The notes below the pieces were generated by a model. That model saw only the letters and a program-made list of their open reading frames with translations. It was not told where the DNA came from and did no database searches. The position numbers and the translations under genes were made by a program. Positions 32,988 through 43,532 of a stretch of 64,000 bases of DNA are shown here, in pieces. Numbering within the stretch: the stretch's first letter is position 1; each line of letters begins with the position of its first letter. This DNA comes from an archaeon (GTDB lineage: Archaea > Nanobdellota > Nanobdellia > SCGC-AAA011-G17 > GW2011-AR17). Location: NCBI GenBank assembly GCA_043825775.1, contig JBDRRK010000012.1, forward strand, positions 1,237 to 65,236, read 5' to 3'.

Positions 32988-34220
32988 ATGGCAGAAGATG
33001 ATATCTATAAAAGTAAGCAAAAATATGAAACTGTTGTTAATGGTTTTGATAGCTTAATAGAGAAACCAACTGGTAAAAGTAAATATTTTTGTAAGAATAA
33101 AAAGAATATAAAATATTTTAAGGGGTTGGTTAAATATTTTGATTTGAAAGATTTAAGTTATATTAGAAGACGTAAGGTTTTGTACATTATGAGATTAATT
33201 ACTTTTGTGATTAAAAAAGATTTGAAAGATTGTGAAAGAGAAGATGTTAATGAATTGGTTGCTTTTGGTCATGAAAGGTTTAAGACAATAACAAGTAAAA
33301 AAGATTTTATCAAGGATGTAAAAGTAATTTGGAGAGTTCTTTTTCCTGAAAAAGATAATAAGGGAAGAATAGATGAAACCTTAACTCCTTATGCAGTAAG
33401 GCATTTGTCTAATAAAATAGATAAAAGTAAAGAGAAATTAAGGAATGATAGGATTTCTTTAGAAGAGTTTGAAGCGATTGTTAAATTCTATGATAATGAT
33501 CCTAAAATGCAGGCTTATTTGACTCTTGCTTTTGAAAGTTTGGGTAGACCTCAGGAAATTCTTTATACTAAAATAAAAGATTATGAATTTTATGATAACT
33601 ATGCGAGGATTTGGATATCTGAACATGGGAAAGAAGGATGTGGTTTTTTACAATGTATTGATAGTCTGCCTTATGTTTTGAATTGGTATAGGAATCATCC
33701 TTTGAAAGGTGATAAAGATGCATTCTTTTTTATTAGTGAGAACAATAGGGCTAAGTATGGGCAGTTGAAAAACCATAATATCAATCAAAGATTAAAACAT
33801 GCTTGTAAGGTTTTAGGTATTGATAAGAATATAACTTGTTATTCTTTGAAAAGAAATGGTATTACTCATAGAAGAATAAGAGGAGATTCTGATACAGAGA
33901 TACAGCATGCTGCCAGATGGACTTCTACAAGGCAGTTGAAGATATATGATATGAGTACTCAAGAAGATGCCTTGAAAATTGCTTTGAAGAAAAGAGGGTT
34001 TGTAGAGAAAGAGTCTAATGTAAATACTGAAAGTAAAAAGTGTGTGTTTTGTGGTCAAGATAATGGGTTTTCAGAAGAGTTTTGCTCTGTTTGTAAAAGA
34101 CCTTTAGATAGGGATAAGTTAAGGGAACAGGCACAGATGCACGAAAGGTTGATGCAGAACAATATTGTCCAGAAATTAGATAAAATGGAGCAGATGTTTG
34201 GGAAGATGAAAAAGATGTAA
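32988..34220 (+). CDS. Tyrosine-type site-specific integrase (with C-terminal zinc ribbon)
   Basis: Box I-like 'ESLGRPQEI'; C-terminal catalytic region '…ITHRR…QHAARWTSTRQLKIYD' with H/W/Y spacing typical of Xer/integrase family; 'CVFCGQ…CSVCKRP' zinc ribbon. Confidence 0.7.
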   Translation: MAEDDIYKSKQKYETVVNGFDSLIEKPTGKSKYFCKNKKNIKYFKGLVKYFDLKDLSYIRRRKVLYIMRLITFVIKKDLKDCEREDVNELVAFGHERFKTITSKKDFIKDVKVIWRVLFPEKDNKGRIDETLTPYAVRHLSNKIDKSKEKLRNDRISLEEFEAIVKFYDNDPKMQAYLTLAFESLGRPQEILYTKIKDYEFYDNYARIWISEHGKEGCGFLQCIDSLPYVLNWYRNHPLKGDKDAFFFISENNRAKYGQLKNHNINQRLKHACKVLGIDKNITCYSLKRNGITHRRIRGDSDTEIQHAARWTSTRQLKIYDMSTQEDALKIALKKRGFVEKESNVNTESKKCVFCGQDNGFSEEFCSVCKRPLDRDKLREQAQMHERLMQNNIVQKLDKMEQMFGKMKKM

Positions 34221-34280: not shown

Positions 34281-34424
34281 ATGAAACAGAAATTAAGCAT
34301 AACTATCGAGGAAGAAACTATAAAAAAATTAGAACAATTCATCCAAACTGGTAAATTTAGAAATAAATCACACTTAATAGAATATAGTCTTAATGAATTT
34401 TTGAGAGGAGAAAAAAATGAGTGA
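34281..34424 (+). CDS. Ribbon-helix-helix (CopG/Arc-like) small DNA-binding protein
   Basis: 47 aa 'MKQKLSITIEEETIKKLEQFIQTGKFRNKSHLIEYSLNEFL' fits the RHH pattern (beta-strand 'ITIEEE' then two helices). Not in the ORF track because it is under 60 aa; overlaps the next start. Confidence 0.5.
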   Translation: MKQKLSITIEEETIKKLEQFIQTGKFRNKSHLIEYSLNEFLRGEKNE

Positions 34425-35784
34425 ATTAACCTATGATGAATTAGTATTTCCAAATTATGTAAATAGTAATACTGCAGTTCGATTGAGAGCTAATATTGAT
34501 GGAAGATTACAAACATTAGAGTTAAGTGTTTGTGATATGGCTTATGCAATTGAACTTGCTGGTTTGAATAGTTTATGGTTATCTGATACTGGAAGAGGTA
34601 AAACTCAGTTAATGTCTGATATTGCTTGGCATCATTTTGGTGGTGACCAAGAAGAAGGTGATGCTAACTGGGCTGATGGAAGACCAAGTTTTGATATTAC
34701 TGATTTGTTTGAAAGAACTCAAGTTGATTTAGAATCAGGAAAGTTTGATAGTGATACTGCTCGTCAAGTTAAGGCAAACAGAATTAGAAGAATGTTTTTT
34801 GGAGTTGATGAAATTAATCGTGCTCCTAATCCAAGACAGAACGAATTTTTTGATTTAGCTGATGGTAAATATACTTTTAATGGGAGGAGACTGGATTTAG
34901 GTAAAGAAGGTTATGCTATTTTTATGGCTACTGCCAACTTAAACAAAATGAATGGTGATTTCTCTGGAACTTTTGAATTAGATAGAGCTCTTTTGAACAG
35001 AGCCCATGTAACTATAGATTTAGATCATCCTGATTTCAGACCTACTGTTGAGGATGAAATGCTTATTGAAGAGGGGAAAGCTAATCCAAAAGTAGATATT
35101 GCTCCTGCTCAAAATTTAAGTGGTAAAATCTTAACAGCAAATAAAGAAATAATGGCTACAGCTAGACAACTGAATCCTTATTTTACTGCTTTTAGATTTT
35201 TGATAGGAAGAGGATTAGATTATTGTGCTACAGATAAATATGATGAAAAAGGATCAAATTTTCCAATGCTCTGTGCTGAATGTGATGACACAGGTAAAGA
35301 TCTTTGTTCTAGGGTTAAAGGTTCTTCAGAAAGAACCTTACCTGCAGTAAAGAGTTTAGCTTATGCTTTGTCATATATTGCAAAATTGAAAACTGGAAAA
35401 GAAGTTGAAATTGATCCATTAGATGCTACTTTGCAGGCATTTAGATTTACTACATATCATGGTAATTTAAATGAGCTTATGGCTGAAGACCAATATGCAA
35501 TGAGAAAACAGATTATGATGGATGAAACAGTTGAAAAGTTATCTGGTGTTGTTGATGTTTTACGTCCTTATTTGCCAATTATGATAGATGGTGGGGAACC
35601 AGTTATTGTTAGTTACCAATTTAAAGGTGAACAATTTGATGGTCCAAAAACAGATAAAACAATTAGTACATTAAGAAAAGCAGGGATTTCATATCAGGAA
35701 AAGGGACTCAAAGCTGAATTAAAAGAACAAGGTCTTGGTACTGACTGGATTGACCCTTATGTTAAATCTATGAGGAAAAAATGA
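34417..35784 (+). CDS. MoxR-family AAA+ ATPase
   Basis: Walker A-like 'SDTGRGKTQL'; Walker B 'FFGVDEINRAPNPRQNEFFDLADG'; sensor-1 region 'FMATANLNKMNGDFSGTFELDRALLNRA'; these match MoxR 'DEINRAxPKTQSALLE…ATQNP…GTYPLPEAQLDRF'. Confidence 0.75.
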   Translation: MSELTYDELVFPNYVNSNTAVRLRANIDGRLQTLELSVCDMAYAIELAGLNSLWLSDTGRGKTQLMSDIAWHHFGGDQEEGDANWADGRPSFDITDLFERTQVDLESGKFDSDTARQVKANRIRRMFFGVDEINRAPNPRQNEFFDLADGKYTFNGRRLDLGKEGYAIFMATANLNKMNGDFSGTFELDRALLNRAHVTIDLDHPDFRPTVEDEMLIEEGKANPKVDIAPAQNLSGKILTANKEIMATARQLNPYFTAFRFLIGRGLDYCATDKYDEKGSNFPMLCAECDDTGKDLCSRVKGSSERTLPAVKSLAYALSYIAKLKTGKEVEIDPLDATLQAFRFTTYHGNLNELMAEDQYAMRKQIMMDETVEKLSGVVDVLRPYLPIMIDGGEPVIVSYQFKGEQFDGPKTDKTISTLRKAGISYQEKGLKAELKEQGLGTDWIDPYVKSMRKK

Positions 35785-36551
35785 CTAACACACTAAAACC
35801 ACTGAACTTAGGAAGAAGAATACTAACAGAAGAGGAAGTTTTAGAGCAGTTAGCGGGTTATCAACCAACTAATCCTAGACAAGAACTTGAACCAACTCCT
35901 CAACCACAACCAACACCGGAGCCAGAACAAGAAGCAGATATAATTCCTCAAGACTATATACTATTAGAAGGAACAAATAACTATCAAGATACATTTATTT
36001 CAACTACAAGAACACACCAAGGAAATAATTGGAATAAAACCCAAGAGCTTTTACATGCACGAGATCTCTATATGCCTACTATTAAGCAATTTGTTGATTT
36101 TCTTAAATTACTGAGAAGTGGAACAGCTTTTAATGGAAATGGAGATAACATTCCATCTTCACAACTGGATGCAATATACAAGGACATAACTGAAGTGAAA
36201 GACCCATGGAGAGCAGAATGGTTGGATGCTAAATTTGAAGGTAACCTTATTCATTATCATCATAGAACCAGGCAGGGAAGTTTACAATCTGTAGTTTCAG
36301 AAGGACTAGTTCCATATTTAAGACAGGACAAGACCCCCGGTATTGATTTAGAATACTGGATAAACAATTCCACTTCACAAGGTTTACCTTTGGATAATAC
36401 TCTAAATGGGAATTTATATTATTGGCATCCAAGAGATGGTGCTGTCGCGAGGTTCAGTGCGAATTCGGATAGGGCTTACCTTATTTGTAGCAGGTACCCT
36501 TGGAGCTCGAATTCCTCTCTCGGGGTACGTCCTTGCGCGCGAAAAAATTAA
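35781..36551 (+). CDS. DGR target protein 1 (C-terminal variable C-type-lectin/FGE-like fold ending '…SLGVRPCARKN')
   Basis: The 3' end contains VR1, which is homologous to the TR with adenine-specific mismatches; paralog of 38375-39166; start overlaps the MoxR stop. Confidence 0.8.
   Translation: MTNTLKPLNLGRRILTEEEVLEQLAGYQPTNPRQELEPTPQPQPTPEPEQEADIIPQDYILLEGTNNYQDTFISTTRTHQGNNWNKTQELLHARDLYMPTIKQFVDFLKLLRSGTAFNGNGDNIPSSQLDAIYKDITEVKDPWRAEWLDAKFEGNLIHYHHRTRQGSLQSVVSEGLVPYLRQDKTPGIDLEYWINNSTSQGLPLDNTLNGNLYYWHPRDGAVARFSANSDRAYLICSRYPWSSNSSLGVRPCARKN
36442..36522 (+). repeat. DGR variable repeat VR1
   Basis: 81 nt aligned to the TR (39419-39519); 8 mismatches, all at TR adenines. Confidence 0.8.
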
Positions 36552-36569
36552 CGATCAATACAAGAAAAA

Positions 36570-38378
36570 ATGGATACAAACCAAGTAACAGAAGAAATCA
36601 AGGCAAGAGAAACTGCAAGATTTAACTATAAAGGAAAGGTTTTAGTTAGAGAGTTATCTAGAGAACCTTGTTTTTCTGGCAGTATTGATATGCTTACTAC
36701 TGCAAAAATAGAGGTTGGTTATAATCCAGATTATCCAGAAGAAGCTCAACATTTAGAAGGAATTGTTACTGAACCTTTTGAAAGAGCAATGACTTCAGTT
36801 TTAAGACATGAGCTTAATCATAAAGGTGGAGGAGAATTTCAAGGATGCCCTAGAAATATTGATTTACATGCTGAAAATGTTCTTGAACCTGCAGCAGAAG
36901 TATTACAAAGTTTAGGTTTACCAAATGTCCCTGTTACTGAAAATCAAACTCTTTATGCTTACATGGCTAACTTAATAGAAGATGTTTTTGACAATGCAGA
37001 ATTAGGCAATAATTCTGACCATGTTGGTATGTTTCTAGCTTACAAAGATGATGCTCAACATCTACCTGATGATATGGAAGGGAAACTCTCACCTCTATTT
37101 GATGCTTTTGTTCAATTGCAACAAAAATTATATGGTGGGAGAGCAAGCAGAAAATTATTAGCTGAACATTATTCTGATGATAATAGAGTTCAAACTGCAA
37201 TTGATAATTTTATGCAAAGGTCTGGTTTGACTGATATGACGAGAGAAGTCACAACTAGAAGAAGAAAAGAGAGAGTTGAAATATTTGATAGAAAAGAAGC
37301 AGTTCAATATTTGATGGATGAAAACAATTGGCCAGAATTGTCAAAAATCTTAACAGAAGAATTTGCTGAATTGATTGATAAAAATAAATTACAACAACCA
37401 GATTATGTTAAAGGAACTTTCATACCTCTAAAAGGTGAGGCTGATGGATTTTCTGATGAAATGGATGATAAAGAGACTAAAATGAGATTAGTTTGGAAAA
37501 AATATGTTGAAGGAAAGGGAAAAGAATCAAGTCCTGCTTTCCAACCTCCTGCTTATTTAGAAAGTTTTGAAGCTTTGGATTTAGTCTATCAAAGATTAGC
37601 AAGAAATTTAGAAATCAAAACAAAAGCTTCCACAAGAACTGCAAGTATGCCTGTAATGCACTATGGAAAGAGAAAGTTTGACCCAAGAAGAGATAAATTA
37701 TCAAAAGCCAGAATTGGTTTTGGCAGAAAAGGAAAATTAGAGTTAAGTGTAGGAAGATTTCATGAGGATTATCCAGTTGAATATACTGAAAGAATGAGAA
37801 GTCTGCCAGAAATAAAGTTTGTTATGATGGATACCTCTGGAAGTATGTCTCATCCTGTAGAAGGAAGTGATACTGGTAAAGTCATGAATCCTTGGGCAGA
37901 TGAAAGAAGACAATGGGGAGATAATAGCAGATATCATCATGCGTTAGTTGCTTGGTATGGTTTGTTAGGATTATTAAGAAAACAAGGAACATTAAAACAT
38001 AAATCAGTCAAATTAGCTAATTATTCAAGTTCTACTCAAACAGCTTCTGATTTAAGAGATGCTAAAAAATTGGCTTTAACACCTCAGTTCGGAGGTACAG
38101 AGTTAGATTTAGACACTATTGATGATATGTTTGGAAGAGACCAGTTGATATTCTCTTTATCAGATGGAGATGTTGATAACTGGAATCGAATTAAAGATGA
38201 ATATATCCAAAGAGCCAAACAAAATCATTATTTTCATTTGCAAATTGGTGGAGAAACAGCAATGTCACGAGATTTAGAATCTGCAGGTTTGGTAGTTAAA
38301 TATGATGATGGTAAGAATTTAGGTAAAATGGTTATTGATTTAACAAGACCATATATTACTAGGATGGAGAAAAAATGA
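36570..38378 (+). CDS. VWA-domain protein with MIDAS motif (MoxR partner)
   Basis: C-terminal half: 'KFVMMDTSGSMS' (DxSxS MIDAS) and downstream 'IFSLSDGDVDNW'; follows the MoxR gene pattern. Confidence 0.75.
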   Translation: MDTNQVTEEIKARETARFNYKGKVLVRELSREPCFSGSIDMLTTAKIEVGYNPDYPEEAQHLEGIVTEPFERAMTSVLRHELNHKGGGEFQGCPRNIDLHAENVLEPAAEVLQSLGLPNVPVTENQTLYAYMANLIEDVFDNAELGNNSDHVGMFLAYKDDAQHLPDDMEGKLSPLFDAFVQLQQKLYGGRASRKLLAEHYSDDNRVQTAIDNFMQRSGLTDMTREVTTRRRKERVEIFDRKEAVQYLMDENNWPELSKILTEEFAELIDKNKLQQPDYVKGTFIPLKGEADGFSDEMDDKETKMRLVWKKYVEGKGKESSPAFQPPAYLESFEALDLVYQRLARNLEIKTKASTRTASMPVMHYGKRKFDPRRDKLSKARIGFGRKGKLELSVGRFHEDYPVEYTERMRSLPEIKFVMMDTSGSMSHPVEGSDTGKVMNPWADERRQWGDNSRYHHALVAWYGLLGLLRKQGTLKHKSVKLANYSSSTQTASDLRDAKKLALTPQFGGTELDLDTIDDMFGRDQLIFSLSDGDVDNWNRIKDEYIQRAKQNHYFHLQIGGETAMSRDLESAGLVVKYDDGKNLGKMVIDLTRPYITRMEKK

Positions 38379-39166
38379 CTAACACACTAAAACCCCTGAA
38401 CTTAGGAAGAAGAATACTAACAGAAGAGGAAGTTTTAGAGCAGTTAGCAGGTTATCAACCAACTAATCCTAGACAAGAACCTGAACCAACACCTCAACCA
38501 CAACCAACACGGGAACCAGAACAAGAAGCAGATATAATTCCTCAAGATTATATTCTATTAGAATCTACTGGTAATTATCCAGATACTCACATTTCAACTA
38601 CAAGGATACACCAAGGAAATAATTGGTTTCAAGCACATGAAGAGCTACACAAAGAAGGATTGTATATGCCTACATTAAGACAGTTTGTAGATTTCTTAAA
38701 GTTATTAAAAGGAGGAAAGGCATTTAATGGCCAAGGAAATAAAATTCCAAAAAACCAATTGGAACAAATACTGAAAGAAATAATTGAAGTAAGAGCTCCT
38801 GGTAGAGCAGAGTGGCTTGATGCTGATTTTAAGGTAAAGAGTGATATTTTACATATAAATTACAATCATAGAACTGTTGGTGGACAATTACAACCAAATC
38901 AGTCAGAAGTTTTACAACCTTATTTGGATCAAAATAAAACTCCGGGAATTGGTTTAGAGTATTGGTTAAACAATGCAACATCAAGACATGGTCTGCCACC
39001 AGCAAATACTTCAGATGGAAGTTTATATTACTGGGCTCCAATGTCTGACAATAATTCTGTCGCGAGGTTCGATGCGTATTCGGGTAGGGCTAGCCTTAGT
39101 TGTGACGGGAACCCTAGGGACTCGAATTCCTCTCTCGGGGTACGTCCTTGCGCGCGAAAAAATTAA
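38375..39166 (+). CDS. DGR target protein 2 (paralog of target 1)
   Basis: Same N-terminal 60 aa and same C-terminal '…SNSSLGVRPCARKN' as target 1; contains VR2; start overlaps the VWA stop. Confidence 0.8.
   Translation: MTNTLKPLNLGRRILTEEEVLEQLAGYQPTNPRQEPEPTPQPQPTREPEQEADIIPQDYILLESTGNYPDTHISTTRIHQGNNWFQAHEELHKEGLYMPTLRQFVDFLKLLKGGKAFNGQGNKIPKNQLEQILKEIIEVRAPGRAEWLDADFKVKSDILHINYNHRTVGGQLQPNQSEVLQPYLDQNKTPGIGLEYWLNNATSRHGLPPANTSDGSLYYWAPMSDNNSVARFDAYSGRASLSCDGNPRDSNSSLGVRPCARKN
39057..39138 (+). repeat. DGR variable repeat VR2
   Basis: Aligned to the TR; 9 mismatches, all at TR adenines. Confidence 0.8.
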
Positions 39167-39418
39167 CTATCAATACAAGACATAAAAATATAAAAACTAT
39201 GATTTTCTTAATTCCTTGTCTTAGAGACATTATCTTGAGTATTTCCACATCCTAAGGAAATGCAATGAAGGATAATCGCAAGGGCTACATGTAGATTCAT
39301 TAGTGCATTTTCAAAATGTCATAAAATTCAATAATGATAGATAGTAATAATGACAAACCTTGGGAAAGTTTAGAGTGAAACCTAAAATTATGGTGCTTTT
39401 ACAATGAGTTTGCTAAAT

Positions 39419-39519
39419 CTGTCGCGAGGTTCAATGCGAATTCGGATAGGGCTAACCTTAATTGTAACAGGAACCCTAGGAACTCGAAATCTTTTTTAAG
39501 ACGAGATTTCCTCTCTCGG
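39419..39519 (+). repeat. DGR template repeat (TR) with embedded hairpin (39486-39510), immediately upstream of the RT
   Basis: A-rich copy 'ctgtcgcgaggttcaatgcgaattcggatagggctaaccttaattgtaacaggaaccctaggaactcgaaat…cctctctcgg'. It translates to N-A-N-S-D-R-A-N-L-N-C-N-R-N-P-R-N-S (AAC/AAT codons). It lies in non-coding DNA 24 nt upstream of the RT start. Confidence 0.8.
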
Positions 39520-39542
39520 AATAACCTTTGTTATCTAAGACA

Positions 39543-40669
39543 ATGAAAACTTGCAAAAACTTATATTCAAAACTATATTCAATAGACAACCTAAAATTAG
39601 CATTCACAAAAGCTAGAAAAGGAAAAACACTTAGACTAGAGGTAATCAAATTTGAAAAGAATCTTAATAGGGAATTACCTCAACTAAAGAATGAATTAAA
39701 GTTTTTAACTTATAAACCTAAACCTCTAGTAAACTTTATTATTAGGGATCCTAAAATCAGAAAAATAAGCAAATCTCATTTTAGAGATAGAGTTGTCCAT
39801 CATGCACTTTGCAACCTAATAACTCCCATCTTTGAAAAAACATTTATCTTGGATTCTTATGCAAATCAAATAGATAAAGGAACATTAGCTGCTATTCAAA
39901 GATTTGATTATTTCAAGAGAAAAGTAACCAAAAACAATACAAAAAATGCTTATGTTTTCAAGGCAGACATAAGAAAATATTTTGAATCGATAAATCATGA
40001 GATTCTAACAAACACTATAAAAAAGAAAATAAAAGATAGAAGAATAATCTGGTTAATACAAATCATCCTCAACAATTCAACTGGGGGGGGGGCGAACAGA
40101 AAAAGGGCAACATAAATCAAAGATTTCTTTCCTCATATATTCAGAAGGGAATGCCTTTGGGAAACTTAACATCCCAATTCTTTGCAAACCTTTATCTCAA
40201 TGAATTGGATTATTTTGTAAAACGCAAACTAAAAATAAAATATTACATTCGTTATGTTGATGATTTCATAATCTTTCACAATTCAAAAGAAAAACTTGAA
40301 TTTTACAAGGAAGAGATAGGTTCTTTTCTAACGAGTAAATTAGATATAGAATTACATCCAGATAAATCAAGAATATTTCCTATTCACCGAGGAACAAACT
40401 TTCTTGGATTTAAAATATTCCCTTATCATAGGATTATAAAAAACCAAAATCTAAGGAGATTTAAAGGTAAATTAAAACAACTTGAAAAACAATACAGACA
40501 AGGGGGTATAAGTTATGATGAACTATATGATTCCTTGGAAGGCTGGCTTGCTTATGCTAAAAATGCTAATACTTACAAATTGAGAAAGGAGATTTTAGAA
40601 CAAGTAGAAACTCTGTTTTCGAAAGAGGTTTCAAGTAAAGAGATAAATAGATATCAAAAATATAACTAA
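39543..40669 (+). CDS. Diversity-generating retroelement reverse transcriptase (frameshifted in a G10 tract; two ORF fragments 39528-40115 and 40151-40669)
   Basis: RT motif 2 'FKADIRKYFESINHE'; DGR-specific motif 4 'GMPLGNLTSQFFANLYLNELD' (SQ replacing QG); motif 5 'YVDDFIIF'. A homopolymer at 40083-40092 interrupts the frame; an 11-G version reads through. Confidence 0.85.
40083..40092 (+). repeat. G10 homopolymer causing the RT frameshift
   Basis: 'aactggggggggggcgaac'; frame 1 stops 20 nt downstream; the +2 frame is open across the tract and into ORF2. Confidence 0.7.
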
Positions 40670-41064: not shown

Positions 41065-42384
41065 ATGGCTAAAAATAATGATTCTTTGGATGTTACTGCA
41101 GTTATAATAATTCTTGTTGGGATAATAAGTGTTTGTTATATTTGGTGGGAAAGGAATGGACAAGAAATAGAAGCGTCATTTCTCGCAATTCCATGGGTAA
41201 AGATAGGCATAATTATCTTACTTACTCTTATTTCAATATTTATTGTCTATAAAACAATAAAGTACATAGAAAAGAGAAAAAAAGAAAAACAAAGAACAGA
41301 AGAAAGAATAGAAAACGAAAAAAATACCCTTCTTTCCCTACTAAATACAGATTTTCAAGGAAATTCTAGAGAAATAGAAGAACAATACAAAAAAATAAAT
41401 AAAAGAATCAAAGAAATAAATAAAAACATTAGAAATCAATACCAAAAAGAGATAAAATCATTACATAAGAAAACAAAGAATTTAATCCAAACTATAGAAC
41501 AACAAGAATATATAAGATATGAAAGACAATTAGAACAAGAAAGAGAAGAAGAACTAAAAAGAAAAAGACATAAAAATAAAGTAAAAGAATTATTTGAATA
41601 CAAGAAAAAATTAAATTCAATAAGGGCACTACCCTTAAACAAAAAATACTCTTCTGATGTTATTAATGAAGCTACAAAATTAATGAAATACTATGAACAT
41701 AAACAAGGACAACTAAATGAAACAAGAGAAAATGCAATAGAATATTACAAAACACATCCATTGGACACACAACCAGAGATTAGGGAAAATGAAGAAAAAT
41801 TATACAAAGAAGTAAGAGACCAAATAAAACAAGGGAAAATAGAACTAAAGAAAAAACCAAAAATAGAATATCAAGGTAAAAAACTGGAAAAGGATTTTTA
41901 CCTGTCAAAGGATTTAAATGAAGAGACAAAAGCAAAAGCTAGAGCTCAGGGATTTGTACAAGTTGATGGAATAAAACTTGATGGAAAGATACAGGGTGGT
42001 GGTTATTATATAAGAAAGGAAAATCCAAGAGAGAGTAAAAAACACTTCTACTTAAAACACTTATTTGCTAAACTACATGAAAATACACAATTAGAATATC
42101 AGGTTAAAGGCAAAAGGGTAGATGTAGTATTATTGATAGAAGATTACAAGTTAGGGATAGAAATAGAAACTGGAGCCAATAGAGAAAAACAATTAATGGA
42201 GAAGATTTCTTGGTTAAACAAGAATTTTGATCAATGGATTTTTGTCTGTCCAAAAGAGTTGCATGGGAAATATAATAAATTAGTAAATCCTAAGAAAAGC
42301 TTTTGTTTGGGGATTAAGGAAGCAAAGGAATTCATCTTGGAGTTGACTTTACCTGTTGAAGATCTGCAAAGAACAGGTAAATAG
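41065..42384 (+). CDS. Membrane-anchored coiled-coil protein with C-terminal PD-(D/E)xK-like module (hypothetical)
   Basis: 2 N-terminal TM helices, long K/E-rich coiled coil, C-terminal 'GKRVDVVLLIEDYKLGIEIETG'. Confidence 0.4.
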   Translation: MAKNNDSLDVTAVIIILVGIISVCYIWWERNGQEIEASFLAIPWVKIGIIILLTLISIFIVYKTIKYIEKRKKEKQRTEERIENEKNTLLSLLNTDFQGNSREIEEQYKKINKRIKEINKNIRNQYQKEIKSLHKKTKNLIQTIEQQEYIRYERQLEQEREEELKRKRHKNKVKELFEYKKKLNSIRALPLNKKYSSDVINEATKLMKYYEHKQGQLNETRENAIEYYKTHPLDTQPEIRENEEKLYKEVRDQIKQGKIELKKKPKIEYQGKKLEKDFYLSKDLNEETKAKARAQGFVQVDGIKLDGKIQGGGYYIRKENPRESKKHFYLKHLFAKLHENTQLEYQVKGKRVDVVLLIEDYKLGIEIETGANREKQLMEKISWLNKNFDQWIFVCPKELHGKYNKLVNPKKSFCLGIKEAKEFILELTLPVEDLQRTGK

Positions 42385-42479: not shown

Positions 42480-43532
42480 TTAGTATTTATCCAGAATCTT
42501 ATTAAGGAATTTTATAAATTCTTTAGTATCTAAAAAGTAATTAGGATAAGCTTTCTTCAAATCAGCAGTAGTATCAGCACCAACAAGAACAACATCATAT
42601 TCTTTTTTACCATAAATTCTTTTTTCAGCTTTAGCATAATCGTCAAGTGCTTTCTCTTCTTGTCTTTTTGAATAAGAAGTAATGACTAACTTTTCTTGAA
42701 TTGTATCTAATTCAAGTAAGAAAAAATGTACATTTTTTTTACTCTTTAAATCATCAAAAAACTTAATTGATTTAGCCCAACCTACCATCTTAGTTCTAAC
42801 ATTTAATTTTTTTTCTTTTTCCTTGATCAATAAATAAAGTTCTTTTTCATTTGAGGGAGTATTAGGAACTTGAGGACAATTTTCTAATCTTGCAAATGCT
42901 GAACTAACCAATTTAAAGAATTCTTTCCATTCTTCTTCTCCTTCATTTGATTTAATCGCTTGACCAGTAAAAAAATCAACTGTTTCAACTGCTGTAGCCC
43001 AAATATGTTGTAATCTAGATCTAATTTGTACTTCAATTAATAATCCATTATAGATTTTTCTTTTTTCTTTATCACTATTGTATCTATAAATTAAATGTAT
43101 GCTTCTATACCCATCTTCCTTTGGATAGGTAATATAATCCTTTTCATTTACTTTTTTATGTTTTAAGGTTCCATTTGAATAGTAGTCTTGATAGAGCTTC
43201 TTTGCCAATTCAACATCTGTCATAACAGCCCTACATCCTGCAATATCTTGCATTTGAGTTAATTTCATTGTAGCTTTTTTTCCATCATATTTCCTATGCA
43301 ATTTTTTTAAGATAGAAGATACTCTCTTTAGTCTCTGTGCAGATAATGAACTTGGATCTATCTTTTCAGAAGATCTCTTTAACCTTTGCTTAAAAACATG
43401 CATAGGGTAGCTATGGGCCGCTCTCCAATTACTTAAAACCCCTAAAGCTTTGGAACTTTCCTTTTTTGTTAAAATAACTCCTGCAGCATCAGTTTCAGAT
43501 TTGGAGTATTTTTTAGGGTTTATTTGTTTCAT
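42480..43532 (-). CDS. RelA/SpoT-homolog (RSH) synthetase-domain protein with C-terminal extension (toxSAS/CapRel-like)
   Basis: Synthetase motifs 'QRLKRVSSILKKL' (Syn1), 'DIAGCRAVM' (Syn2), 'GYRSIHLIY' (Syn3), 'EVQIRSRLQHIWATAVE' (Syn4), followed by about 140 aa of non-RSH sequence. Confidence 0.7.
   Translation of the reverse strand: MKQINPKKYSKSETDAAGVILTKKESSKALGVLSNWRAAHSYPMHVFKQRLKRSSEKIDPSSLSAQRLKRVSSILKKLHRKYDGKKATMKLTQMQDIAGCRAVMTDVELAKKLYQDYYSNGTLKHKKVNEKDYITYPKEDGYRSIHLIYRYNSDKEKRKIYNGLLIEVQIRSRLQHIWATAVETVDFFTGQAIKSNEGEEEWKEFFKLVSSAFARLENCPQVPNTPSNEKELYLLIKEKEKKLNVRTKMVGWAKSIKFFDDLKSKKNVHFFLLELDTIQEKLVITSYSKRQEEKALDDYAKAEKRIYGKKEYDVVLVGADTTADLKKAYPNYFLDTKEFIKFLNKILDKY

Follow-up and report, generated by a model that had tools for sequence, protein, structure and literature searches.

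A recurrent DPANN gene cassette in which lectin-fold targets of a diversity-generating retroelement are interleaved with genes for a MoxR-class ATPase and a predicted HExxH/VWA protein

Diversity-generating retroelements (DGRs) are very abundant in DPANN archaea, and host attachment is the usual guess at what their variable proteins do. A 64,000-nucleotide (nt) stretch of archaeal DNA (assembly GCA_043825775.1, contig JBDRRK010000012.1, positions 1,237 to 65,236; the whole stretch is referred to here as the window) raises the question of why the two target genes of such an element should be interleaved with genes for a MoxR-class AAA+ ATPase (open reading frame [ORF] A) and for a protein with a predicted VWA domain (ORF-B). 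The answer favored here, to which we assign a probability of roughly 0.6, is that the locus represents a conserved, DPANN-specific DGR cassette, in which 2 to 10 soluble lectins would serve as the variable specificity subunits of a core formed by the MoxR and HExxH/VWA proteins. An earlier note on the same DNA had proposed a machine of this kind, and the idea is retained as the best reading of the data, with the physical association of its parts as its conjectural component.

The gene order MoxR > target 1 > VWA > target 2 and the two ATGA overlaps described in that note can be read directly from the sequence, and all four cassette ORFs are on the forward strand (Table 1; identical proteins in NCBI under locus tags ABIJ18_03235 to ABIJ18_03250, on a 200-kb contig). 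Together with the components of the retroelement, they form the arrangement A-target(s)-B-target(s)-RT-16 RNA-template repeat (TR)-reverse transcriptase (RT). The overlap at 35781-35784 reads ...AGGAAAAAATGACTAAC and the one at 38375-38378 reads ...GGAGAAAAAATGACTAAC, with the shared junction string ...GAAAAAATGACTAAC, and an AGGA or GGAG sequence is found 7 to 9 nt 5' of each target ATG. Other operons of the same window, including an ABC transporter operon, also have ATGA overlaps. Such overlaps are by themselves ordinary; what goes beyond chance is the recurrence of the whole arrangement.

Table 1. Features of the cassette and its immediate surroundings, in window coordinates
Feature	Position	Strand	Description
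Tyrosine-recombinase-like (integrase-like) gene	32988-34220	+	Directly upstream of the cassette; Phage_integrase match, E 6.5e-8
ORF-A	34417-35784	+	455 aa (amino acids); divergent MoxR-class AAA+ ATPase
Target 1	35781-36551	+	256 aa; predicted soluble, C-type-lectin-fold DGR variable protein; ATG overlaps the ORF-A stop (ATGA)
VR1 (variable repeat of target 1)	36442-36514	+	8 mismatches to TR, each at a TR adenine
ORF-B	36570-38378	+	602 aa; N-domain (~1-345) with HExxH; C-domain (~355-600), predicted VWA
Target 2	38375-39166	+	263 aa; predicted soluble, C-type-lectin-fold DGR variable protein; ATG overlaps the ORF-B stop (ATGA)
VR2 (variable repeat of target 2)	39052-39129	+	10 mismatches to TR, each at a TR adenine
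RT-16 RNA motif (Rfam RF03019)	39233-39421	+	87.7 bits versus a gathering score of 50; ends at the TR start
TR (template repeat)	~39414-39491	+	~21 adenines
DGR reverse transcriptase	39528-40669	+	Pieces 39528-40115 and 40151-40669; frameshift at G10, 40083-40092

That recurrence was assessed by scanning one genome per species (as defined in GTDB) with an ORF-B profile, which gave 88 matches, from which 80 loci were kept. Nearly all of these are labeled as DPANN/Nanobdellati (Woesearchaeota, Pacearchaeota, Nanoarchaeia, and one member of Micrarchaeota); the rest come from a few metagenome bins labeled "uncultured Methanosarcinales" and one labeled "Saccharibacteria," which are taken to be misassigned. 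Mapping of the A, B, target (T), and RT profiles onto these loci revealed the common architecture [T]-A-T(1-4)-B-T(1-2)-RT. ORF-A is upstream of ORF-B on the same strand in all 42 loci that have at least 4 kb of upstream sequence, and an ORF of lectin size (130 to 420 aa) abuts the stop of A in 46 of 47 loci, the start of B in 47 of 49, and the stop of B in 48 of 57. The junction between B and the following target is exactly -4 in 25 of 41 cases, and that between A and its following target is overlapping in 19 of 37. This order, A-T(n)-B-T(n), is kept even where ORF-B identity falls to ~25%. Of 81 sequences searched, 32 (the window plus 31 related loci) contain adenine-biased TR/VR pairs, whose VRs sit at the 3' ends of genes located after A or B. 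Among the 29 loci with large flanks, 19 include an RT, whereas the other 10 have none within 10 kb. The survey of related genomes, on which the earlier note had made its proposal depend, came out strongly in favor of a recurrent arrangement. One of the loci, carrying target-ORF-B, is a contig (L054) of Nanoarchaeota SCGC AAA011-G17, which is among the genomes where archaeal DGRs were first described (PMC4372165). In three metagenome-assembled genomes (MAGs), the A-B-lectin cassette is present twice, as separate copies on different contigs (L026/L048, L030/L049, and L017/L024), a sizeable investment for genomes of ~1 Mb.

The DGR itself is real and bears the signature of mutagenic retrohoming: the mismatches between the TR and VR1 (8/8) and between the TR and VR2 (10/10), 18 in total, fall exclusively at TR adenines. 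In the reading frame of the VRs, the TR encodes repeated Asn (AAY) codons. The RT-16 RNA motif probably belongs to the TR transcript, since it abuts the TR in all 7 related loci tested. Both halves of the RT match RVT_1 and the PADLOC RT models, and the ...LGNLTSQFFAN motif is present. The earlier note had recognized the DGR but overlooked that its RT gene is frameshifted at a run of 10 G residues, the only G/C homopolymer of at least 8 nt in the entire 64-kb window; in related loci, intact RTs comprise 324 to 414 aa. Neither the interval from target 2 to the RT nor the region beyond the RT contains an ORF with an Avd-like match. Absence of Avd is common in DPANN DGRs (PMC4372165).

Two further features of the retroelement were observed. 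On the 3' side of CTCGAA (39466-39510), the TR contains an insert of ~19 nt, ATCTTTTTTAAGACGAGAT, which is missing from both VRs and after which TTCCTCTCTCGG resumes; the insert and its flanks form an inverted repeat, GAAATCT/AGATTTC, that was noticed by eye and may represent an IMH* (initiation of mutagenic homing)-side hairpin. Related DPANN loci, 1.01 Mb in total, contain 7 G/C runs of at least 8 nt, all of them in RT genes, which account for 3.7% of the bases (RT homopolymers at L015 13473, L045 592, L048 8410, L031 6148, and L062 13760, among others). One of them, a C52 run at the contig end of L076, is probably an artifact; the remaining ones are poly-G runs on the RT coding strand that occupy differing positions in the RT, four of them splitting the RT and two (G11 and G12) being in frame. 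These patterns suggest that the poly-G tract may turn the mutagenic RT on and off, by phase variation or under the control of slippage.

The targets are 71% identical to each other and have their VRs at the 3' ends. They have no match in Pfam, NCBIfam, or PADLOC, and both single-sequence and profile searches of the PDB were empty. Structure prediction, built with database homologs, returned a C-type lectin (CLec) fold (predicted local distance difference test score, pLDDT, of 90.4), nearest to DGR variable proteins, preceded by a low-confidence charged helix and a Pro-rich linker (residues 1 to 55). No hydrophobic segment fit for a signal peptide or a membrane anchor was found in any of the 64 targets or 41 ORF-B family members analyzed, while membrane proteins of the same window, used as a control, scored far higher. 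Because all its parts look soluble, the cassette is predicted to encode soluble proteins, which favors an intracellular machine.

Lectins that follow A and those that follow B do not form separate orthologous classes: the best match in another locus of a target after A was a target after B in 16 cases and a target after A in 8. For roughly half of the targets, the nearest relative lies within their own locus, and the copy number ranges from 2 to ~10. These relationships, which indicate an interchangeable, expanding array of paralogs around a single A-B core, led us to reject two dedicated partner classes, and the specific pairs suggested in the earlier note (target 1 with the VWA protein and target 2 with MoxR) have been abandoned accordingly. 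In loci where the target profile gave no match between A and B, the same slots hold other lectin-like subfamilies, with C termini such as ...RGVRPAQ, ...GRFVGVRAPEAQ, ...GRVVFAKLRSS, and ...ASFLQLVTHK, several of which also have adenine-biased VRs; it is thus the slot that is conserved and not one gene. In the window, a 300-nt direct repeat with 86% identity (35755-36054 versus 38349-38648) takes in the 5' portion of each target and has its start 26 nt ahead of the ATG, within the 3' ends of ORF-A and ORF-B (...MRKK* versus ...MEKK*), so that target duplication or gene conversion would copy the coupled junction as well.

Expanded cassettes with up to ~10 lectin-like paralogs between A and B are seen in L021 (3669-9905) and L025 (1102-9905). 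In L003 (5143-15017), target-like genes alternate with genes whose products have C termini that look like leucine-rich repeats.

The assignment of ORF-A to the MoxR-class AAA+ ATPases comes from transitive homology, a profile match to the PDB, and conserved motifs. The window protein itself has no match in Pfam, NCBIfam, or PADLOC, and a single-sequence phmmer search of the PDB was also empty. Its 133 homologs, all from DPANN archaea or of unassigned source, include distant members (E values of 1e-25 to 1e-67) that match AAA_5, AAA_3, and bpMoxR; among 73 aligned members of the family, these models are matched by 27, 15, and 8 proteins, respectively. The top match of the family profile in the PDB is the MoxR-family structure 2r44_A (E value of 3.4e-5), in an alignment that covers Walker B, sensor 1, and the arginine region. 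The Walker A motif reads SDTGRGKT in the window protein (GDTGxGKT in the family consensus), Walker B is VDEINRA, with the DEINRA string typical of MoxR, and the sensor 1 residue N174 (ATAN) and the arginine R195 (DRALLNR) align to the ATQN and DRF region of 2r44. Residues G61, K62, E132, N134, Q141, N174, and R195 and three Cys residues are invariant; D131 and C289 are kept in at least 90% of the members. Borderline hydrophobic segments at residues 29 to 73, just N-terminal of Walker A, read as the AAA+ core strand that precedes the P-loop and not as membrane segments. The C-terminal half contains a conserved cluster of four Cys residues (C270, C286, C289, and C297; window positions ~35224-35307) that is probably a zinc-binding module, which would be unusual for MoxR.

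ORF-B represents a new and sizeable protein family without Pfam coverage, with 43 close homologs and, in a library of 1.84 billion proteins, 360 representatives at 50% clustering. For the ORF-B protein of the window, searches of Pfam, NCBIfam, and PADLOC were empty, as were sequence and profile searches of the PDB. When 41 family members were compared with Pfam, none matched the VWA models, PF13203, or PF09967 at an E value of 0.1 or less, and a single member had a chance-level match to VWA_2 (E value of 0.25). Neither these members nor 10 of the most divergent representatives had a Pfam domain in common, and one family member contains an inserted Big_7 domain. A viral origin of ORF-B was considered and dropped, as no relative was found among the IMG/VR viral contigs. 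The C-terminal half is nevertheless a VWA domain, as judged from its predicted fold, for which a search of the PDB had NorD (of NorQ-NorD complexes) among its matches, and from the conserved residues of a metal ion-dependent adhesion site (MIDAS): in the MIDAS-like D421-x-S423-x-S425 motif (numbered by sequence position), S423 is invariant, as are T510 and D532, while D421 and S425 are conserved in at least 90% of the members. The profile searches recommended in the earlier note thus gave nothing for the window proteins directly, whereas deeper comparisons (transitive homology, profiles against the PDB, motifs, and predicted-fold searches) bore out both of its family calls, MoxR and VWA.

What that note had missed in ORF-B is the N-terminal half, which carries an HExxH motif with H80, E81, and H84 invariant in 41 sequences (HESFH in a homolog from Hydrothermarchaeota) and which may, by virtue of this motif, be a zincin-like peptidase domain. 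COG3864/DUF2201-type proteins likewise consist of a metallopeptidase-like N-domain and a VWA-like C-domain and are usually encoded beside MoxR-like ATPases. ORF-B resembles them in having HExxH followed by a VWA-like domain and in its pairing with MoxR, but does not match PF13203 or PF09967.

The A-B pair is also found on its own. In a Hydrothermarchaeota MAG (GCA_046760505.1; L083, 7001-10993), A and B are directly adjacent, with neither a lectin gene nor an RT; this B homolog (E value of 1e-82) retains HESFH and DTSGSM, and the gene after the pair encodes a protein with a GXGXG motif. In L082 (7001-9426), A is followed by a VWA-only homolog of B (373 aa, without HExxH), again with no lectin gene or RT. 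These lectin-free pairs show that A-B works as a unit, an independent functional one to which the lectins were added. Conversely, one locus (L158) has the same lectin family beside an RT without A or B, and RTs of the same clade (49 to 66% identity, sampled from metagenomes) have A/B nearby in only 4 of the 17 loci whose upstream sequence reaches 5 kb or more, so that A and B were rejected as obligatory partners of this RT clade.

The earlier note knew of no description of this arrangement, but its general form has been reported, as DGR-diversified CLec (FGS) domains in MoxR-vWA(-VMAP) systems of cyanobacteria and gammaproteobacteria (PMC7159879, PMC10907252). According to Kaur et al. (2020), ~80% of the cyanobacterial and gammaproteobacterial vWA-MoxR-VMAP ternary systems are tied to a DGR, the hypervariable FGS/CLec domain is as a rule part of the vWA protein, by fusion, and archaeal cases are few, in Methanosarcina and Cuniculiplasma (PMC7159879). 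Doré et al. (2024) proposed that vWA proteins with a lectin serve as sensors of antigens and act through MoxR, described loci with MoxR directly upstream of a target and with a second, short CLec-only target, and stated that the DGRs found in CPR (candidate phyla radiation) and DPANN genomes lack such domains (PMC10907252), a statement that the cassette contradicts.

The likeness to the VMAP ternary systems extends to the components (MoxR AAA+, vWA/MIDAS, and DGR-diversified CLec in one operon-like neighborhood, often with two targets) and to the proposed logic of a variable sensor coupled to an NTPase switch. The differences are as follows. In the ternary systems, the lectin is usually fused to vWA, whereas in the window and the related loci examined it is encoded by separate, interleaved genes of ~260 aa; a VMAP is not detectable in the cassette, and effector domains of the trypsin, caspase, TIR, or EAD type are absent; its vWA protein has an N-terminal HExxH domain; its MoxR and vWA sequences, as found in the window, are below Pfam detection; and its host is a DPANN archaeon, whereas the hosts of the ternary systems are multicellular bacteria. 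With AvpA-type DGRs of Nanoarchaeota and other DPANN (PMC4372165, PMC5006420), the cassette shares the lineage, small CLec-fold targets, multiple targets per RT, and the lack of a clear Avd; these papers make no mention of an ATPase or VWA neighbor. In the literature library searched, the only publication that brings together DGR, DPANN, and MoxR is that of Doré et al. (2024), though Paul et al. (2017) might have noticed the association earlier. What is new here is the archaeal host, the unfused lectins in arrays of 2 to 10 interchangeable paralogs, the HExxH-VWA fusion, and the absence of a detectable VMAP. By analogy, the cassette is proposed to be an archaeal, unfused functional counterpart of the bacterial DGR MoxR-vWA (VMAP) ternary systems. 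It would link DPANN targets to the bacterial "antigen sensor" systems, extend the DGR-MoxR-vWA partnership to archaea with minimal genomes, and weaken its proposed tie to multicellularity, while a large class of DPANN DGR targets would gain a biochemical context of complex formation, ATPase-dependent remodeling, and proteolysis.

The mechanism that we infer for the cassette, the underlying concept of which has already been published for bacteria, can be outlined as follows. The adjacent RT-16 RNA/TR/RT unit would rewrite the ligand-binding face of the lectins, which would act as interchangeable specificity subunits and catch ligands, probably inside the cell. The MIDAS of ORF-B could then hold either a conserved, nonvariable part of the lectin or the caught ligand, as in other MoxR-VWA pairs; by analogy with the characterized systems, it would bind an acidic residue of one or the other, candidates on the lectin being the invariant E146 and D149 of the RAEWLDAD motif. 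A hexamer of ORF-A would provide ATP-driven remodeling, and the invariant HExxH domain of ORF-B would be the likely output, through proteolysis or processing. The overall role might be the sensing or targeted processing of foreign molecules, as has been proposed for the bacterial systems, or, instead of defense or sensing, an interaction with the host. A more specific version, in which the lectins deliver their bound ligands to the MoxR/VWA-MIDAS/HExxH core of an intracellular, DGR-programmable machine for anticipatory, antibody-like targeting to proteolysis or signaling in cells that rank among the smallest known, is tentative and should be regarded as less probable than its negation by a wide measure. 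If true, it would replace the prevailing view of DPANN DGR targets as surface adhesins for host attachment and would mean that the DGR-MoxR-vWA partnership spans both prokaryotic domains independently of multicellularity.

Several observations weigh against lectins acting as specificity subunits of an A-B machine. Contact among ORF-A, ORF-B, and the lectins is something that we infer. The N-terminal extension of the lectins is always present, but its sequence varies, and a conserved docking peptide at this position, considered as a candidate, was rejected on these grounds. The Pfam scan and the clustering of flanking ORFs revealed no third, VMAP-like or effector component, and PADLOC has no match for ORF-A, ORF-B, or the targets. 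The label "zincin-like peptidase" comes solely from the invariant HExxH motif, as neither structural searches of the PDB nor sequence searches gave a significant relative for this part of ORF-B. Even without signal peptides, the proteins could leave the archaeal cell by nonclassical export. Finally, the RT is frameshifted in the window, so this locus may be silent for diversification at present.

The main rival explanation reverses the roles: A-B would be a chaperone, quality-control, or assembly device and the hypermutated lectins its clients rather than its specificity subunits, to be folded, matured, sorted, or degraded by it, for example with the HExxH domain removing misfolded or self-binding variants, or with A-B loading the lectins onto a surface structure for host attachment. 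The known MoxR-VWA pairs NorQ/NorD, CbbQ/CbbO, and RavA/ViaA are maturation or remodeling factors with one dedicated client each, and the cassette resembles these and the Rea1/Midasin MIDAS system in having an AAA+ gene followed by that of a VWA/MIDAS partner, in the DEINRA Walker B, in the top profile match to 2r44, and in the structural match of ORF-B to NorD. That lectin genes abut A and B so tightly, one to one, would fit clients equally well. Moreover, cell-cell attachment is the working idea in the literature for DPANN DGR targets (PMC6349945, PMC10907252), and an archaeal virus assembles its tail outside the cell by means of a MoxR-VWA pair (cited in PMC7159879). However, the targets and ORF-B proteins lack a signal peptide or membrane anchor, the lectins, as seen beside the RT in L158, can apparently be made without the pair, and the solved DGR lectins TaqVP, AvpA, and TvpA fold without such helpers (PMC5006420). 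The classical pairs differ from the cassette in serving one fixed client (NOR [nitric oxide reductase], Rubisco, or respiratory complexes), whereas the cassette has hypervariable proteins in multiple copies and the HExxH domain. On balance, we consider lectins as mere clients doubtful, with odds of about one in four.

Lectins as specificity subunits are also to be weighed against a neighborhood devoid of functional meaning, in which targets were duplicated into an older MoxR-VWA operon or a mobile element carries the block as a whole. The occurrence of A-B alone elsewhere would agree with this, as would the ready duplication of lectins within loci, with a repeat that takes in the 26 nt before the ATG, the commonness of ATGA overlaps in this genome, and the presence near the cassette of an integrase-like gene in 13 loci and of a TraG/HerA-like ATPase in 11. 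Mere hitchhiking is nonetheless quite unlikely, given that the interleaving holds in 42 of 42 testable loci, through ORF-B divergence to ~25% identity and the replacement of one lectin subfamily by another, that the stop/start coupling is conserved, that DPANN genomes are small and streamlined and yet some MAGs keep two cassettes, and that a parallel association arose independently in bacteria. Still less likely, and close to negligible, is a role of A and B as retrohoming accessories that replace Avd in RT/TR-RNA assembly or cDNA integration and do not act with the lectins: no recognizable Avd-like gene lies between target 2 and the RT and A and B are always near VRs, but most RTs of the same clade do without A/B, which argues against retrohoming factors, A-B pairs exist without a DGR, and 10 of the 29 large-flank cassettes have no RT within reach.

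The window belongs to the chromosome of an AT-rich archaeon, with archaeal 23S and 16S rRNA, RNase P, and PheRS genes near the cassette. Downstream of the RT are a gene (41065-42384, forward strand) whose 439-aa product has a membrane segment at its N terminus as well as a long, charged coiled coil and a RelA/SpoT-domain gene similar to small alarmone synthetases (42480-43532, reverse strand), neither of which is kept beside the cassette in other loci. Clustering of the flanking ORFs across loci yielded no further conserved gene besides the integrase-like and TraG/HerA-like P-loop ATPase genes. Homologs of the integrase-like gene of the window, possibly a mobility gene outside the core cassette, occur in either orientation in the 13 other loci (for example, at L030 15264-16535 and L031 13608-15245, both on the reverse strand), which, together with the ATPase genes, hints that the cassette often resides within or beside integrated mobile elements.

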